Shown one piece after another: positions 1,111 to 11,377 of a DNA stretch of 11,377 bases. Every line of letters starts with the position of its first letter. Within the stretch, counting starts at the first letter, position 1. Below the pieces are notes generated by a model, which worked only from the letters and a program-made list of their open reading frames with translations, had not been told where the DNA came from and searched no databases. The position numbers and the translations under genes are program-made. The DNA is from Alphaproteobacteria bacterium (GTDB taxonomy: Bacteria; Pseudomonadota; Alphaproteobacteria; CAAHEQ01; UBA3637). The stretch spans positions 1-11,377 of the forward strand of contig JAZUQR010000023.1 in NCBI GenBank assembly GCA_045605805.1. The letters run 5' to 3'.

Positions 1111-1169
1111 TATTCACACCAATCTGGGTATTTTACAATTAAGTCCATGTCTTCGCCACGAGAATCAAA
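1107..1169 (-). pseudogene. Orphan C-terminal tip of a paralogous Tlde1-like toxin
   Basis: FDSRGEDMDLIVKYPDWCEY* versus the toxin end FESHEEDIELIVKYPDWF*. 1118-1170 matches 1577-1629 at 44/53 nt, and 7 of the 9 differences are at third codon positions. Confidence 0.85.
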
Positions 1170-1521
1170 AACACTCAATGTGTGAAATTCTAAACTGAAT
1201 TGATAACAGCACAATTCCAAAATACAATAATATCCATACAGTAGAAAAGACAAAACTGAAGAATAAAATTTTTAATTTGAATAAAATGGAAGAATTGCAC
1301 ATCTTGCGAATCCATTTTTTTACAAATAACAACGAGATTAAAATAAAAAGAACTTGACTGATAAACCACAGCCAAATATTCATGGGGATGCCACCTTTTC
1401 CATCCGTAAAAAAACAACCATTTTTTAATACCCTCAATAGGCAAAAGAACTCTAACACATAAAATATGCCCCAGCCAAGAAAAAACAAAACACTTAGAAA
1501 AATATTCAATACTTTTTTCAT
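1165..1521 (-). CDS. 3-TM membrane protein, putative cognate immunity protein (family A, copy 1)
   Basis: RBS GAGGA. Lies directly downstream of the toxin gene and is a paralog of 331-681. Confidence 0.8.
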   Translation of the reverse strand: MKKVLNIFLSVLFFLGWGIFYVLEFFCLLRVLKNGCFFTDGKGGIPMNIWLWFISQVLFILISLLFVKKWIRKMCNSSILFKLKILFFSFVFSTVWILLYFGIVLLSIQFRISHIECF

Positions 1522-1571: not shown

Positions 1572-2237
1572 TCAAAACCAATCTGGGTATTTAACAATTA
1601 ACTCTATATCTTCTTCGTGAGATTCAAAATAACTAATAAAATTATCCATACCTTCTGCTAGGTCAATACAGCCTTTTGATCCCATATCTACTCCACCATG
1701 AATAGATAGATTTGTGCGCCCTTGAGTATTTGTTTTCTTATCTGGTTCTAACCAAATTCTATCATTGCCCCATGAAATGTTACCGCCTGGTCATTTCCCT
1801 AAGGGATAATTTATATGTTTTGTTAGCCCTCCAACATAACTTATTATTTGATCGTCCCAAGATAAATCATCAAATTTTTGATGATTTTTTTGTCTGACAT
1901 GCCATTTACTCTCTGGGATAGGTCCAGCACCAGACACCCCCATATATTTCCTACTTTGAAAATTCTCCTTTCCAGACATAGCAGGCCATTCCTTTACTTT
2001 TTGACCGTTTTCATACCACATCAGTTTTTGTCCATCAAATAATAAATAGGTCTTACCCTTATTTTCTTCCTCTATTGGTTCGGCCCAACAGCGACAATTA
2101 GGGGCTTCGCCTGGATTACCTCCTTCTGGTGGGTTATCAAAGTCAAATATTTGTCCGTTTCGGGCGGCATGTTCGGAACGCACTTTACTATCACCCATTG
2201 TGTGCCATATATATTTTGTCATTTTCTTTCCTTTCAT
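1572..2237 (-). pseudogene. Minimal MuF (gpF minor head) domain fused to a DUF2778/Tlde1-like L,D-transpeptidase-fold domain; one internal TGA at 1791-1793
   Basis: N-terminal YIWHTMGDSKVRSEH...PGEAPNCRCWAEP is the MuF C-terminal motif. It is followed by LLFDG...AMSG...GPIPE. The frame continues past the TGA as PGGNISWGNDRIWLEPDKKTNTQGRTNLSIHGGVDMGSKGCIDLAEG...KYPDWF*, with His and SxGC catalytic-type residues. Likely start is the ATG at 2222 (RBS AAGGA). Confidence 0.8.
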
Positions 2238-2242
2238 TTAAT

Positions 2243-2307
2243 AAAAAAAGCCCGCAAGGGTCATTCCTTACAGGCAACAAAAAACAGGGCATAGTTTTCC
2301 CTGTTAA
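2243..2307 (-). promoter_or_regulatory. Double-hairpin leader (two terminator-like stems), copy 1
   Basis: AACAGGG-N9-CCCTGTT followed by Ts, then GCCTGTAAGG-AATGAC-CCTTGCGGGC followed by T7. Lies between the promoter and RBS of the toxin gene. Repeated at 6718-6772. Confidence 0.65.
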
Positions 2308-2316
2308 CCGTTTGAG

Positions 2317-2344
2317 AGTATAGCATAAATCCACAAAAAATCAA
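2317..2344 (-). promoter_or_regulatory. Promoter for the MuF-Tlde1 gene
   Basis: TTGATT, 16-nt spacer, TATACT with an extended -10 TGn. Confidence 0.55.
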
Positions 2345-2558
2345 GGATTATTTTCCTATTCTATCAGTTTGAAGTCAATTCTGAAGCCGATGAACATGAC
2401 AAAACTGTACCTTTACCTATCCATCTGAACCAAAACTAAAGTTCCCCAGAGGGGTTTTGTTATAATAAAGTTTGTAGCCACCTTTTGGCAAGTGGGCGTT
2501 TTGAAGATCGACGTTTTGTCAGAATGTACAGTATTTAGATGCAATTTCTTATTAAAAT

Positions 2559-6676: not shown

Positions 6677-6717
6677 GGGGGAAATCATTTGTGAATTTAG
6701 GTTCTGCCCTCTGGTGT

Positions 6718-6779
6718 TTAGCAGGGCTAACTATACCCTGTTTTTTATTGCCCGTATGGAATGACCCTTGCGTTTTTTT
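6718..6779 (+). repeat. Double-hairpin leader, copy 2 (inverted relative to copy 1)
   Basis: 6718-6772 matches the reverse complement of 2253-2307 at 48/55 nt without gaps, and is followed by T7. Confidence 0.85.
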
Positions 6780-6800
6780 AACCCTATAACAGGAGTTTAT

Positions 6801-6848
6801 ATGCCAGATAAAGCAACCTTAGTATTTCATGGGCAAAAAGTGGTTGTT
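6801..6848 (+). pseudogene. 5' stub of a second, MuF-less Tlde1-like gene
   Basis: RBS AGGAG, then MPDKATLVFHGQKVV, which resembles GKTYLLFDGQKLM of the toxin (2019-2057). It runs into the 3' end of the convergent glycosyltransferase (in-frame stop at 6879-6881). Confidence 0.55.
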
Positions 6849-8909
6849 TTAGTATTTTTGAATTTCTTTGATATCCAGTAATGGACAGCCAAAAATCTTG
6901 ATGCTCATGGTATATAAGCCTATCTTTTTGATTTGGATTTCTATTATGGGGATGGCAAACAGTTTTATTTTGAAAGTCGGCCCTTTTTGATATTCTAACA
7001 ACGGAATAGTATAATGATTTTTAAAAAACTGGGAATACAGCCAATAGAATTGGAAAGTCAGTTTTTTCTTGAACTTTTTGGATTTCAAATATACATGTAT
7101 CCACTCCAGTAATTCCTTGGAATAGTGCAAGTGATATTTTTTCAGCATGTATAAGCAAAAGTTATATATGGTTGTTGTTTCTTTTTCTTTGCTCTGTATA
7201 TCCAAATGCAAATAATTTTGGTAAACTTTATTAAAAAAAACATCCGCATATGCACCGATTATTGGATTTGAAACATTCATTCTTTTCAGCATTTTCAAAG
7301 TATGTTTATAGATGAAAATTAAATCATGAAAATAAGTTGACATATTTTGTGTTGTGGCTTCAGAATGGATTCTGCGATGGTAAAAGGGCAGTTTTAATGT
7401 TCCCATTCTGGCATCCTTAAATACTGCTTCTGTGAAAAATGGAGTATCTTCAAAAACCACTTTTTTGTTCATCCACGTAATATCGTTTTTTAACAAAAAC
7501 ATCCGGCGATAGAGGGTTAAACAGGCAGTCACAGACAGTTTTGCCATATCTGTTGCCATTATTTTCCAGTTAAAAACAGAGGGGAACTTTTCAGGCAACC
7601 AAGAAAGAGTGTGATAAGGTTCTTCAAATTCGGCTTTTGTTTTATGATTAAACTCTATTGCCGAGAATGAGAGCATATCCAAAGCATATAGTTTTGCATA
7701 GGTGTATAGCATTTCACAGGCGTTTGATTCCAAATAATCATCTGCATCTAAAAATTGGATAAAAGTGCCAGAGGCAACTTCCATGGCATTATTTCTAGCA
7801 ATTGTGCGTCCTAGATTTGCTTGATGCATTACTTTGATGCGGGCATCTTTTTGGGCATATTCCTTTAAGATATGCAAGCTGTTATCCGTTGATCCATCAT
7901 CCACGCAAATGATTTCAATTTCTTTTAAGGTTTGATTCAAACAGCTATCCAAACATTCGGGTAAAAACTCGGCTGCATTATAAACAGGAATAATAATGGA
8001 TATTTTTTGTTCGTATTTTGAGGGAGAAAGTATTTGCGCCACAACTTGTTGCGGTAAGTTTGTTAAAATTGATTTTAGGCCAATTCCTCTTTCGTTTGTG
8101 GATAGATTATCTAATCCTGCACAGAGGCACTTTTTCAACCATATGTAATAAGCCCCATCAAAGTCTTGGAGTAAAGAGGACTTTTCCATTTGATAGTACA
8201 GATTTGAAAAACTTTTAATTTTGTCTTCAAACTCTTGCACCGCTTCTTTTTTTTGATAAGGATTTATATTGATTCTGTGACAAAACAAGCACTCATCCAT
8301 TACGGAAATCTTGGTTGATGCAGCCAATACCATGGCGTTAAAAGCTTGATCAGTGCAATATTTTAATTCCTCCTCAAAGGTTAAGTTAAATTTGTGAATT
8401 AAATCAGCCCGAATCAGTTTATTCCAAACGACATTAGGAAAAGTTATAAATAATTCATCTGATAAATCTTGTGGAGTACACGGACTTTGATTCAAAAGTT
8501 TTTCATCTAATTTTTCTGAACCAGTGATTTCTTTGAATGTTTGATTCAAGATATTATAGCCTTCAATCACAATATCCGATTTATCTGTTTCGGCTTTTTG
8601 AACCATTTTAGCTAGCATGTTTTCATCAAATATATCATAGGAGTTGGCAAAATAAATATACTTTCCTTTTGCTTCTGACAAAGCTTTATTTCTGGCAACA
8701 GCAACACCTGAATGGGGTATAGAAATCACCTTTAAACGTGCATCCAAAAAAGCATACCCTTGCAAAGTGGATAAGCTATCATCCTGTGATCCATCATCTA
8801 CACAGATGATTTCAATATCTTCTAATTTTTGTGTTAACAAGGAATCTAAGCACTCTCCCAGATATTCTTCTGTGTTATAAACAGGTAAAATTACAGAAAC
8901 TGCTGTCAT
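6849..8909 (-). CDS. Glycosyltransferase family 2 with two tandem GT-A domains
   Basis: Two copies of S(V/I)I.PVYN...ECLDS...EIICVDDGS.D. The second domain has FLDADD. ATGA overlap with the upstream gene. Confidence 0.93.
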   Translation of the reverse strand: MTAVSVILPVYNTEEYLGECLDSLLTQKLEDIEIICVDDGSQDDSLSTLQGYAFLDARLKVISIPHSGVAVARNKALSEAKGKYIYFANSYDIFDENMLAKMVQKAETDKSDIVIEGYNILNQTFKEITGSEKLDEKLLNQSPCTPQDLSDELFITFPNVVWNKLIRADLIHKFNLTFEEELKYCTDQAFNAMVLAASTKISVMDECLFCHRININPYQKKEAVQEFEDKIKSFSNLYYQMEKSSLLQDFDGAYYIWLKKCLCAGLDNLSTNERGIGLKSILTNLPQQVVAQILSPSKYEQKISIIIPVYNAAEFLPECLDSCLNQTLKEIEIICVDDGSTDNSLHILKEYAQKDARIKVMHQANLGRTIARNNAMEVASGTFIQFLDADDYLESNACEMLYTYAKLYALDMLSFSAIEFNHKTKAEFEEPYHTLSWLPEKFPSVFNWKIMATDMAKLSVTACLTLYRRMFLLKNDITWMNKKVVFEDTPFFTEAVFKDARMGTLKLPFYHRRIHSEATTQNMSTYFHDLIFIYKHTLKMLKRMNVSNPIIGAYADVFFNKVYQNYLHLDIQSKEKETTTIYNFCLYMLKKYHLHYSKELLEWIHVYLKSKKFKKKLTFQFYWLYSQFFKNHYTIPLLEYQKGPTFKIKLFAIPIIEIQIKKIGLYTMSIKIFGCPLLDIKEIQKY

Positions 8910-10939
8910 TTTATATTCCTTTCTTTTTCAACAAAGTGGATCATTTGTTCTAAAGCATATTTTGCATCAATTTTATTAATAATAAGCCCTTTGGAATAAT
9001 TTTTTATAAACTCTGCTTGAGCTCCAAGATTAAAACAGGCGATGGGTAATTCCATTGATATAGCTTCAGCAGTCGTATATGAAAATGTTTCTGGAATTAT
9101 TGAAGAAATGAATACGATATCTATTTTATTTCTTTTCATAATCTCTGGTAGCTTTTCTCTTTCATATCTTCCCAATATACGAATGTTTTCAAGTTTTTTT
9201 TTCGCTGACCCTATAACAATACAATTTGTATTTGAATAGTTAGATATCAAATTGTCTATCTCTATTATAATATTTAAACTTTTTTCAACAGTCAAATTTC
9301 CTAAAATACCTATATTTATTTCAGAATGTTTTTCAAGTTTAACCTTATCAAAAGGTTTTATAATATGTGGTGTAATTTTTATTTTATTTTCTAACAAAGG
9401 ATAGAATTTTTTATATATACCAAAAGTTGATTGAGAAAAAAGAATTACCTCATCAACAACATTGTACAAAAAATTTTGCCATAGATTTTTATATTTTGAG
9501 ATAGATTTAACTTTCATTAATGGTTTTTTAATTCTTTTTATACAAGATTCGCATCCTTTAAAATTAGAACAATTACAGTATTCATCTTTACTGTTTTTCA
9601 TATGTATATTGGGACAGATTGCTTGAAAATCATGTCCTCTGAATGAAACGAAGCAATTTAAGTTTTGTTTTAAACGTTTTATTAGATTTAACACTTTTTC
9701 TAGACTAAAATAACACGCTAAATTATTTACAACTATTTTTTGAGGAGAAATTTGATTTATAAAAAATTCTGTGTTCTTATAATTAGAAATAAAAGAATCA
9801 GAATAGCTTTTATAAAAATATGAAATTTTTAAGGTATCTTTTGTATTAAAATCTTGAATCTCTATATATAAAATGGAATTTCTTTTTGATTCGATCTGTT
9901 CTCTAAAATACGCTTCTGAACCACCTCCCAGAGTATGACAAAACCACACCTCTGTAGATTCAGATTTTTCTCTATAAGAAAAAATTTCTGAAATAACGCG
10001 AAATGCCTCAAAATCTTCTTCAAATCCATTTAGGGATTCTTTTTCGTCAAATGTACTTTTTAATTTTGTACATTTTGGTAATTTAGTAAAAAAATTTTTT
10101 GAAGAGACGAAAGAGTAAAAAGGAATTTTATCAAACAGGTAATAAGTAATCTTTTGATTTTTCTTAATGAAAGACAAAAGTGGAATTTTTTTAAAAATAT
10201 ACGCAATTCTATGTTTTTCAAAGTGAGACAAAAATTTATAGAATAATTCAGGATGCTTTTTTCGTGCCAAATAGCGTAATTCTTCCCCAGTATAGGTCAT
10301 TTTTTCCAGCTGTTTATGAGTGGTATTCTTTTCGTGGTGACGATAGCGAAACAACACCTCTTGGATATTATAAAAATTGGTGTAATCCATCAATTGAAGC
10401 CACAGATGATAGTCCTCGGCAGGTGTATAGCGTTCTTCATACCTAATTTTATTTTCAATCAACACAGATTTTCTTATCATAGAGGCGGGATGTAAAATGG
10501 CGCAGCGACTGGTTAAAGCCGCTTTTATCTCTTCATCTTTTTCGGGATGGCATAAATCCAAATGTTTTGGAAAGGTTTCTGCCAAACACCCCACAACTCC
10601 CACATCTTTATGGCCGTCCAAATAAGCCACTTGTTTTGCAAAGCGGGTGGGCAACGAGATATCGTCATGGTCCATGGTTGCCAGATATTCGCCTTGCGCC
10701 ATTTCAATCAGTTTGTTTCGGCTTTGTGTGATGCCCATATTTTTCGGGTTTTGGATATATTTAATACGAGAATCTTTATATGATTTGACAATGTTTTCCC
10801 GAGTATCATTTGGACAATCGTCCAAAATTAAAAATTCAAAGTTTGTAAAAGTTTGGTTTAAGATGCTTTCAATGGCCGTCCTTAAATACGCTTCCTTGGT
10901 TTTATAAATCGGCATTAAAACAGAAACTTTGATAGTCAT
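8906..10939 (-). CDS. Glycosyltransferase fusion: GT2 N-terminal domain plus GT-B (GT4-like) C-terminal domain
   Basis: VSVLMPIY, ILDD, MDHDD and EDY motifs. C-terminal HTLGGGSE, HDF..ICP and PETFSYT..EA....LPI...NLGA..E. Start placed at ATG 10939 (RBS AAGGA, promoter upstream). Confidence 0.9.
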   Translation of the reverse strand: MTIKVSVLMPIYKTKEAYLRTAIESILNQTFTNFEFLILDDCPNDTRENIVKSYKDSRIKYIQNPKNMGITQSRNKLIEMAQGEYLATMDHDDISLPTRFAKQVAYLDGHKDVGVVGCLAETFPKHLDLCHPEKDEEIKAALTSRCAILHPASMIRKSVLIENKIRYEERYTPAEDYHLWLQLMDYTNFYNIQEVLFRYRHHEKNTTHKQLEKMTYTGEELRYLARKKHPELFYKFLSHFEKHRIAYIFKKIPLLSFIKKNQKITYYLFDKIPFYSFVSSKNFFTKLPKCTKLKSTFDEKESLNGFEEDFEAFRVISEIFSYREKSESTEVWFCHTLGGGSEAYFREQIESKRNSILYIEIQDFNTKDTLKISYFYKSYSDSFISNYKNTEFFINQISPQKIVVNNLACYFSLEKVLNLIKRLKQNLNCFVSFRGHDFQAICPNIHMKNSKDEYCNCSNFKGCESCIKRIKKPLMKVKSISKYKNLWQNFLYNVVDEVILFSQSTFGIYKKFYPLLENKIKITPHIIKPFDKVKLEKHSEINIGILGNLTVEKSLNIIIEIDNLISNYSNTNCIVIGSAKKKLENIRILGRYEREKLPEIMKRNKIDIVFISSIIPETFSYTTAEAISMELPIACFNLGAQAEFIKNYSKGLIINKIDAKYALEQMIHFVEKERNIK

Positions 10940-10967
10940 TGGTTTATCCTTGTTCTTTTTTGGTTGA

Positions 10968-10995
10968 ATTATACATAAAACAGTGTGAAAGTCAA
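10968..10995 (-). promoter_or_regulatory. sigma70-type promoter of the glycosyltransferase operon
   Basis: TTGACT, 16-nt spacer, TATAAT. Confidence 0.65.
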
Positions 10996-11377
10996 GGAAA
11001 AAACATTTGATTTTTTTGTTGTGGATGGGGGGGTGTTTGAACATAATTCTTAACGAAAGGTTAATTTTTGAAAAAAAATCATATTTATGTACTTTTTTTG
11101 ATTTTTTTTGCTTGATTTTGGAAAAAAAAACTGTTTAGATAGTTTTGTTAGCTCGTGGGCTTTTGGGGCTGGGTACATAATGTAAATTATGCGAACAAGG
11201 CTTCAAGGAAGGCAAACACAAGTTTAATATTAAACGAAAAAACAAACAAAACAAATGAAAGGAATTAAAATGAACTGGAACATAGAACAAACCATTGAAG
11301 GCCGGCGTAAGGCATGAAATGATGTTTTTGTTGTTCCAATCCATTGAGTATTCTTCTCAAAAATAAAAAAACTGAAA

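Follow-up and report, generated by a model that had tools for sequence, protein, structure and literature searches.

The DNA analysed here, called the window throughout, comprises positions 1 to 11,377 of contig JAZUQR010000023.1 (GenBank assembly GCA_045605805.1, Alphaproteobacteria bacterium). In front of a toxin gene on its minus strand lies a compact leader, termed R1, in which a near-consensus promoter is followed by a GTTAAC box, two hairpins that each end in a U-run, a ribosome-binding site (RBS) and the start codon. This cassette recurs in related genomes, always in the orientation of the gene behind it. It heads at least five gene classes and marks a phage-flavoured gene set that includes a tail-fibre gene and, in a form with one terminator, a T7-like capsid operon. 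With moderate confidence, and judging from sequence comparison, we read R1 as a late-type leader whose terminators would be bypassed, regulon-wide, by an antiterminator of the Q, AlpA or GafZ kind.

Architecture of the leader

The leader occupies 2357-2220 of the minus strand, and its parts are listed in Table 1. A first-pass annotation, made from the letters of the window, had described a promoter, a first hairpin with a U-run, a second hairpin (10 base pairs, bp; loop AAUGAC) with U7, and an RBS; all of these are present, on the minus strand. The A/T-rich tract resembling an UP element keeps TAGGAAAATAWTC in most copies, and the string CTTGAC...TTTATGCTATAMT is near-invariant across 20 aligned ones. 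The promoter was also returned by a promoter consensus scan. Hairpin 1 has a stem of 5-7 bp, which is closed by the first T of its own T6 run. The linker between this run and hairpin 2 is GTT, and ATTAA lies between T7 and the RBS.

The whole leader folds at -31.3 kcal/mol (z -4.3) and hairpin 2 at -17.3 kcal/mol (z -5.5). Hairpin 2 is predicted to be a canonical intrinsic terminator, as it satisfies the Rho-independent pattern used in a terminator scan (a G+C-rich stem of at least 5 bp, a loop of 3-8 nucleotides (nt) and at least 5 U within 8 nt). Hairpin 1 is missing from the list of that scan because of its 9-nt loop. The window holds 6 terminator-like sites against 6.6 in shuffled sequences, and consensus scans therefore carry little weight alone. 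The 20-odd nt from U7 to the start codon contain the RBS only, leaving no room for a second promoter, so that the gene would be expressed only via read-through. The ATG at 2222-2220 is the start that is common to the paralogue on contig C2, an upstream ATG (2237-2235) being unconserved, and an identical TGAAAGGAAAGAAAATG precedes different genes in other genomes. Two other readings of the leader were rejected: a leader peptide, as the AUG in loop 1 is not conserved among copies, and an alternative antiterminator fold, as only about 10 nt lie 5′ of hairpin 1.

Among 20 sequencing runs that contain the sequence, one is RNA (X15, share 0.10, contigs only). Its contigs at the leader cover 2071-2271, 2242-2360 and 2242-2331, and only one of them passes U7, with 22 letters beyond.

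Table 1. Position and composition of the features of the window discussed in the text.
Feature	Position	Strand	Remarks
UP-like A/T-rich tract	2345..2357	-	AGGAAAATAATCC; abuts the -35 on its 5′ side
Sigma-70-type promoter with extended -10	2317..2344	-	near-consensus; -35 TTGATT 2344-2339, 16-nt spacer, TG 2325-2324, -10 TATACT 2322-2317
GTTAAC box	2303..2308	-	eight bases 3′ of the -10; about +2 to +8 of the predicted transcript
Hairpin 1 with U6	2279..2304	-	ACAGGG / 9-nt loop AAAACTATG / CCCTGT, 2304-2284; U6 2284-2279
Hairpin 2 with U7	2243..2275	-	10 bp (2 G-U and 6 G-C pairs), loop AATGAC, 2275-2250; U7 2249-2243
RBS and start codon	2220..2234	-	RBS AAAGGAAAG 2234-2226; ATG 2222-2220
Toxin gene	1572..2222	-	MuF C-terminal motif (Pfam Phage_Mu_F, profile positions 60-110) and Tlde1-like L,D-transpeptidase domain
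Immunity-like small membrane protein, 118 amino acids (aa)	1165..1521	-	paralogues 716-1060 and 331-681 (repeats D2, D3)
Promoter-like sites	1571-1543, 1110-1082	-	11/12 matches each; before two of the three immunity-like genes
Decayed copy 2 of the cassette	6688..6780	+	hairpin 1 6722-6740, U6 6741-6746; shortened hairpin 2 6750-6772, U7 6773-6779
26-codon remnant of a Tlde1-type gene start	6801..6881	+	MPDKATLVFHGQKV...; downstream of copy 2

Conservation and covariation

R1 was represented by a covariance model built from 20 aligned copies and used with a cut-off of E <= 0.01. In the 20-copy alignment little or no change is seen in the -35, the extended -10, GTTAA and the two U-runs, the latter being invariant in 20/20 toxin-type copies, whereas stem positions are variable. 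Pairing was counted in 59 matches (57 distinct) aligned to the model, a fitting that by itself favours pairing; 90.9% of the cells are paired among the distinct copies, against 75.0% in shuffles. In 16 of the 17 pairs both sides have changed, amounting to 140 cells against 42.2 +/- 6.2 in shuffles, none of which (0/500) reaches 140, and a control in which the partners were slid by 1-3 columns gave at most 31 such cells. All ten pairs of hairpin 2 have changed on both sides (93.3% of cells paired), as have six of the seven pairs of hairpin 1. In some copies hairpin 1 or 2 has even given way to an unrelated one, likewise followed by a U-run (e.g. L028, L033, L025). Keeping a hairpin plus a U-run, rather than particular letters, is what would be expected of terminators.

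The most conserved letters of the cassette are those of RGTTAA and of a TGTAT-like box at a fixed spacing from it. Of 82 distinct elements, 80 contain an RGTTA-type word, which reads AGTTA or GGTTA in 69; the second word, T(G/A/C)T(A/G)(T/C) and most often TGTAT, lies 15-16 nt beyond RGTTAA in 73 of the 80 copies in which both were located. Compensatory changes in excess of those in shuffles and slid controls mark R1 as a conserved structured RNA element. The first-pass annotation had named it a candidate new cis-regulatory RNA. A search of the whole window against Rfam 15 (both strands, E <= 1) gave no match for the leader and two chance-level hits, both elsewhere. The box may be readable as DNA as well as RNA, and the term 'cis-regulatory RNA' is not settled on this account.

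Spread of the cassette

The source genome (1.21 Mb, 31 contigs, 98.85% complete) contains three clear copies. A BLAST search with the 108-nt unit returned three real matches, two in the window and one, 90% identical, on contig C2, the remaining 13 of 16 rows being fragments of at most 28 nt with E >= 0.0175. Weaker matches to the R1 model occur on C25 (38.4 bits) and at C22:1708-1808 (33.7 bits, model filters off), the latter having first turned up in a regular-expression scan of the genome. Over 61 genomes, the source genome and 60 related ones, the DNA query found 21 places in 13. The covariance search of related genomes, which had been suggested together with a listing of the downstream genes, yielded 90 places; these are spread over 43 of the 80 family genomes and 8 of 16 genera, at 1-5 matches per genome; one genus had R1 in 0 of its 21 genomes.

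A scan of 185,579 species (one genome each) for the promoter plus GTTAA pattern gave 53 loci. R1 scores twenty of these above 60 bits, all of rumen, caecal or faecal origin; nineteen bear the title Alphaproteobacteria bacterium and one Pseudomonadota bacterium. Bacillota, Saccharibacteria and other groups contribute loci of at most 37.1 bits, in which only the promoter part matches. A phage origin was considered and rejected: in viral_contigs there was no match to two R1 patterns, and the viral relatives of the tail-fibre N-terminal domain (3 loci) are without R1. As for base composition, G+C is 33.5% in the contig of the window and about 41% in most contigs of the source genome; the short R1-bearing contigs C2 (35.4%) and C25 (37.4%) are also low, and C22 (42.4%), which carries the portal cluster described below, is not.

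Genes behind the cassette

In 52 of 57 distinct copies a co-oriented open reading frame (ORF) starts within 45 nt of the last U, in 56 within 150 nt, and the last copy lies at a contig end. Of the downstream proteins, the 49 with 60 aa or more were classified by Pfam. The largest class carries the T7 tail-fibre N-terminal domain (11), followed by DuOB proteins (10) and by other hydrolases of the lysozyme, pesticin, GH108 or SleB type (9). The MuF C-terminal motif was found in six proteins, several of which have a lysozyme domain, Tlde1/YkuD domains in five and an SAA-like domain in one. Seven proteins had no Pfam match, most of which show, by eye, an N-terminal 'SGHC...CGQKH' motif and a lysozyme-like core. 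In the source genome itself, the copy on C2 precedes a 283-aa protein with the same N-terminal MuF motif as the toxin of the window and a lysozyme-like C-terminus. R1 had initially been described as a leader in front of Tlde1-like genes. This description is too limited, as the cassette heads at least five gene classes, among them the tail-fibre gene and, in the one-terminator form, the capsid operon.

Several of these genes deserve mention in their own right. The motif SGHC..(4)..H..(6)..G..V..Y.R.CGQ(K/D)H precedes varied peptidoglycan-hydrolase domains and has no Pfam match (loci L021, L029, L031, L044, L052, L056, L057, L066, L069, L073 and L075); it could be a second trafficking or packaging module beside the MuF C-terminal motif. 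The R1-driven DuOB genes (PF22557, 219 aa) are followed by a conserved 142-aa ORF in 10 loci (L020, L022, L024, L030, L043, L045, L047, L053, L054 and L058). DuOB was considered as a universal regulator and rejected, the source genome being without it. One R1-driven toxin (L057:788-1474, minus strand) ends in a domain that matches Pfam SAA (serum amyloid A) with E 2.3e-16.

The T7-like structural cluster

Directly 3′ of the weaker R1 copy on C22, the source genome carries a compact operon of phage structural genes (T7-like cluster G000:C22:152-10643; loci L153, L154). It encodes a T7-type portal, T7 capsid-assembly and major head proteins, tail tubular proteins A and B, a gp14-like protein, a large terminase and an endolysin. 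The cluster is without replication or integration genes and has housekeeping genes on its flanks. The portal is found in 55 of the 80 family genomes, as a single match in 54 of them; three weak matches (27-33% identity) are counted among the 55. It is present in 20/20, 5/5, 4/4, 3/3, 10/10 and 6/6 genomes of the larger R1-bearing genera, and as 1 weak match among the 21 genomes of the R1-free genus. Among strong matches, portal identity declines with distance, from 79% for the same genus to a low of 50% for the others. The gene for the tail fibre is unlinked to the cluster (contig C25 in the source genome) and occurs in 48 of 80 genomes, distributed as the portal is. ORF-A, a conserved helical protein of about 118 aa encoded two genes 5′ of the portal leader, is found in 53 of 80 genomes of the same genera. 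Every R1-bearing genus has portal, fibre and ORF-A. The T7-like cluster would have been inherited vertically in this family of uncultured gut and rumen Alphaproteobacteria, and it may be a domesticated podovirus-like particle. In the R1-free genus, a MuF-domain match with 5 in-frame TGA codons was also observed (G021:C76:29638-29985), which is either a pseudogene or a phage region with another code.

Of the 90 R1 places, 14 lie immediately 5′ of the portal gene and 24 immediately 5′ of the fibre gene; an R1-like match of 18.7-40.5 bits directly precedes the portal in 28 of 30 portal loci. These portal-type copies retain the UP-like tract, the promoter and the GTTAA box, and have a different second half. 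After a short hairpin 1 they carry one strong terminator, in which 10/10 pairs have changed on both sides and 96.8% of cells are paired (29 distinct copies, model-fitted alignment). The genes 5′ of the portal leader are also conserved: over 28 loci, a divergent repressor with helix-turn-helix and peptidase-S24 domains (LexA/CI kind, Pfam) is found in 27, ORF-A in 27 and, in all 28, a second small gene, ORF-B, which encodes about 132 aa. This gene ends with its stop codon inside the -35 of the leader, and its last codons, KKENNP*, are the UP-like tract of the portal-type copies. Toxin-type copies keep these ORF-B-end letters as non-coding DNA and therefore arose by copying of the portal promoter region.

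Proposed mechanism

In the mechanism that we favour, R1 would act as a unit made of the UP-like tract, the near-consensus promoter, the box inside a small hairpin, one or two terminators and the RBS. RNA polymerase would initiate efficiently, a few bases 5′ of GTTAA, and stop by default at U6 or U7, giving leader RNAs of about 35 and 75 nt and leaving the downstream gene silent. The terminators would also stop read-through from upstream genes. Induction would pass through the LexA/CI-like S24 repressor adjoining the cluster, plausibly by SOS cleavage, after which ORF-A and ORF-B would be made. One of the two, ORF-A being the best candidate, would act at the box and produce a terminator-resistant polymerase, and the whole regulon would fire together. 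This putative regulon would comprise the portal-capsid-tail operon behind the one-terminator variant, the unlinked tail-fibre gene, DuOB proteins, and polymorphic toxins predicted to attack peptidoglycan and bearing short MuF-C or 'SGHC' N-terminal motifs, as does the toxin of the window. The strongest argument for an active bypass comes from the capsid operon, which must be highly expressed, yet in which a strong terminator separates the promoter from the first gene (28/30 loci). The first-pass annotation had already proposed that two terminators in the 5′ untranslated region (UTR) keep the toxin off until an antiterminator acts. Comparison has added to this proposal the conserved placement, the compensatory changes, the invariant U-runs and the lack of room for another promoter; on the other side, no known antiterminator family was found in the source genome.

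The best candidate for the bypass factor is ORF-A. Its AlphaFold model (pLDDT 79.6) consists of four helices. Its best rows in VIA-align comprise a chain of the Q-engaged RNA polymerase complex 6jnx (Z 5.6, rmsd 4.3, 90 residues aligned), domains of sigma region 4, with Z from 4.4 to 5.5, and, at Z 5.0, a chain from the AlpA-loaded complex 7xyb. These low and tied values indicate a sigma-4-like helix-turn-helix protein and nothing beyond. ORF-B (model pLDDT 84.4) gives faint Foldseek rows, papain-like or NlpC-like, with a best E of 0.29, and neither ORF has a Pfam or PHROG match.

Prophages of the source genome were considered as well. Two regions (G000:C12:1-25800 and C16:1-23800; L139-L142) are siphovirus-like with Firmicute-like genes (YopX, DUF1064, Phage_rep_org_N). 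Both contain a full-length MuF, that of C16 being fused to an ADP-ribosyltransferase domain, and the late genes of each are preceded by 3-4 direct repeats, a promoter and two hairpins. They were rejected as the source of the R1 factor since their putative late regulator occurs in 1/80 family genomes; for the same reason the two contigs may be mis-binned. A third prophage-like region (G000:C28:1-27182; L151, L152; GC 36%) is without an R1-like element and encodes an integrase, a large terminase, a portal, a ClpP-like protease, a capsid protein, an endolysin and many ORFs without PHROG match.

A number of observations weigh against the proposed bypass. First, hairpin 1 alone folds at -6.3 kcal/mol with a non-significant z of -1.4, and in portal-type copies it is short, with TGTAT in its loop and no U-run; the bias of the model-fitted alignment towards pairing has been mentioned above. 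Second, the ends of the X15 contigs match the borders of the repeated cassette, where an assembly graph branches. Third, R1, portal, fibre and ORF-A occur together in genomes that are kin, so that shared descent confounds the association and the counts are non-independent. Fourth, both copies in the window precede broken genes, one with an in-frame TGA and the other a 26-codon remnant, and the system is decaying there. Finally, the search for a factor gave little: Foldseek found nothing for ORF-A at E <= 0.001, its Z of 5.6 is tied with many sigma-4 rows and lies under the caution line of 8-13 that the tool sets for helical proteins, and ORF-A could equally be an ordinary activator. Known families fared no better in the source genome, which holds a single NusG, gives no match to AlpA (PF05930) and reaches only 14.9 bits, below the cut-off and inside an unrelated prophage, for Q (PF06530).

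Alternative explanations

The alternative that survives best, unlikely as we hold it to be, is control at initiation only. The box would be the operator of the S24 repressor or the site of an activator such as ORF-A, the terminators would be passive, insulating or damping elements whose leak suffices, and there would be no antiterminator. A box at +2 to +25 is where a repressor operator typically lies, the S24 repressor adjoins the cluster in 27/28 loci, and the failure to find known antiterminator families in the source genome (a single NusG; ANTAR, AlpA and Q) agrees with this view. Insulation would also be useful in the window, where the toxin gene follows a co-oriented Hsp70-like gene. However, a near-consensus promoter with an extended -10 needs no activator, and two tandem terminators would leave very little leak. 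Above all, without a bypass it is hard to see why a capsid operon in need of high output should sit behind a GC-rich terminator of 10 bp with U7 (96.8% of cells paired in portal-type copies).

That R1 is a small-RNA gene is improbable. Such a gene would give a transcript of some 75 nt that carries a GUUAAC seed at its 5′ end, is U-rich inside and ends in poly-U, and the gene behind it would be only a passenger. Hfq-binding small-RNA modules combine a strong promoter, a double hairpin, a U-rich linker and a 3′ poly-U, a layout that R1 resembles, and RNA-library contigs cover few parts of the window, the leader being one of them, which is a weak point in favour. Against this, Hfq (PF17209) had no match in the 98.85%-complete genome, in 52/57 copies a co-oriented start codon, preceded by a conserved RBS, follows within 45 nt, and stems and loops vary freely or are even replaced, with only structure and U-runs retained. 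Portal-type copies, moreover, share the box and differ in the second half.

Less probable still, to the point of being hardly credible, is a selfish or neutral repeat of the REP/MITE kind, or the shared 5′ end of recent gene duplicates, with no regulatory role. Copy 2 of the window is indeed a decaying duplicate, and the ORF-B-end letters kept as non-coding DNA in toxin-type copies mean that these arose by duplication. A REP/MITE-like scatter in random orientation relative to genes, which had been named as an observation that would refute the regulatory reading, is not what is seen: the source genome has three clear copies, and 52 of 57 distinct copies have a co-oriented start codon no more than 45 nt away. 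Constant orientation at 1-5 matches per genome, compensatory changes in 16/17 pairs, and retention of the cassette before unrelated genes across genera whose portals are 50-67% identical all speak against neutrality. An ANTAR-type two-hairpin target, which the tandem hairpins, the second being a terminator, and the A1 and G4 of loop 2 (AAUGAC) had brought to mind, can practically be discounted: loop 1, which had been remarked from the start not to fit the pattern, has 9 nt, loop 2 is elsewhere AAUAAC, AAUAAA or UAUC, or hairpin 2 is replaced, and the ANTAR domain (PF03861) had no match at E <= 0.1 in the source genome.

Implications of the proposed antitermination at R1

Returning to bypass by an antiterminator, a broader reading can be put forward tentatively, and we hold it with rather low confidence. 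R1 would be the mark of an undescribed domesticated podovirus-like viriform, whose scattered genes are switched together by a new Q-like system of ORF-A and box. Its cargo would be peptidoglycan-degrading toxins, loaded through MuF-C or 'SGHC' motifs that replace the missing gp15/gp16 core, and the particle would be a toxin-delivery capsid rather than, or besides, a gene transfer agent (GTA). The cassette also links 'orphan' MuF-motif toxins to a T7-like capsid and hints at a possible route by which such toxins exit the cell; how MuF toxins do so is an open question. If bypass by ORF-A or another small protein is true, it would be a further independent invention of late control of the Q/AlpA/GafZ type, with a compact target of about 100 nt. 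One covariance model already provides a sequence handle on the capsid operon, tail-fibre and toxin genes of never-cultured bacteria.

Second copy and other genes of the window

The recurrence of 55 nt of the leader on the plus strand, noticed at the outset, is borne out. Positions 6718-6772 (plus) and 2307-2253 (minus) are identical at 48/55, where the same 55-mer reached at most 27-31/55 in 10 shuffles of the window. The similarity extends over 92 nt at 77% (2246-2337 / 6688-6779), and the covariance model scores copy 2 at 70.4 bits. The seven differences fall where they had been placed: three in loop 1, one in the linker, one at the base of stem 1 (A-U to G-U) and two in stem 2 (U to C, and an A to U that creates a mismatch). 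Neither promoter hexamer is left in copy 2, three bases are missing from its stem 2, and its hairpin 2 folds at -5.5 against -17.3 kcal/mol. The remnant downstream of it resembles, by eye, the start of an intact 151-aa Tlde1 gene (locus L059). Copy 2 is a relic, a decaying duplicate.

In the toxin gene behind copy 1, an in-frame TGA (1793-1791) breaks the coding sequence at a position where intact relatives have a conserved Trp, and the next stop in this frame is at 1574-1572. The gene matches intact relatives in tblastn at 63% identity over 160 columns spanning the TGA, and past the TGA it still encodes the catalytic SIHGG...GSKGCID part. In the source genome TGA ends 109 of 498 long ORFs, as a normal stop, and the TGA of the toxin therefore looks like a nonsense mutation. 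The immunity-like proteins have no Pfam match, and similar ORFs lie downstream of other Tlde1-type copies. It had been suggested that the immunity genes use their own promoters: two of the three have strong promoter-like sites, as judged by consensus scan only, and both sites lie within a repeated 86-nt block (1090-1175 / 1549-1634). Elsewhere in the window, at 6849-11044 of the minus strand, lie two glycosyltransferase genes that are very large (686 and 712 aa) and multi-domain, the first of which contains an internal duplication (7876-7994 / 8773-8891) and two GT2 domains.

Comparison with known systems

In the late units of lambdoid phages (lambda, 21, 82), made of PR′, tR′ and Q, an intrinsic terminator lies within about 100-200 nt of a strong promoter, and a short abortive RNA is the default product. 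R1 resembles them in the order of a strong promoter and a terminator, in its promoter-proximal conserved elements, in the structural and lysis genes 3′ of it, and in having a candidate regulator gene just 5′. By contrast, R1 is unrelated to them in sequence, has two terminators within 75 nt and is copied to several unlinked chromosomal genes. Its box is without an evident -10-like pause element, and the likeness of ORF-A to a chain of the Q21 complex reaches only Z 5.6.

The AlpA system places self-lysis genes under DNA-damage control via a repressor. R1 is similar in that a leader terminator precedes phage-type genes with a repressor nearby, bypass being so far a proposal in the case of R1. 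The host, gene set and leader sequence differ, and the source genome is without a Phage_AlpA domain. As set out in the passages of PMC11150451 devoted to these factors, Q, AlpA and GafZ are each loaded at a promoter element and let transcription pass the terminators that lie beyond it; AlpA, in Pseudomonas aeruginosa, is a small DNA-binding antiterminator that acts at a promoter element and bypasses the leader terminator of alpBCDE.

The same passages describe the GTA of Caulobacter, which has a repressor, an activator and an antiterminator (GafY/GafZ) with a binding element between -35 and -10 (PMC11150451). Like R1 and its cluster, it combines an alphaproteobacterial domesticated phage-like cluster with unlinked accessory genes. 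The terminator of that GTA, made of three 150-bp GC-rich repeats, lies after the first gene, the UTR has 229 nt and the particle is siphovirus-like (PMC11150451), whereas the R1 terminators precede the first gene and the cluster is of podovirus type (T7-like). A GTA of the RcGTA type was rejected for the source genome, in which the GTA_TIM domain was not found.

The toxin gene of the window, with the C-terminal part of MuF joined to a toxin domain and with adjacent immunity-like genes, recalls the polymorphic MuF toxins that temperate phages encode (Jamet et al. 2017, PMC5576092). The difference is that only the last ~50 residues of MuF remain here, and that the genes are chromosomal and stand-alone and have their own promoter-terminator leader; in a word search of that text, orphan, truncated, promoter and terminator were absent. 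Finally, R1 shares with the leader families of Rfam and with ANTAR targets the character of a short, structured, terminator-containing element. Literature searches, with supplements outside their scope, gave no description of an R1 leader or of a T7-like element in these bacteria. Neither the box, nor the multi-copy spread over a chromosomal gene set, nor the T7-like element turned up in Rfam or in those searches. The motif is new, and the kind of control, in which a dedicated factor bypasses a promoter-proximal terminator ahead of phage late genes, is known.

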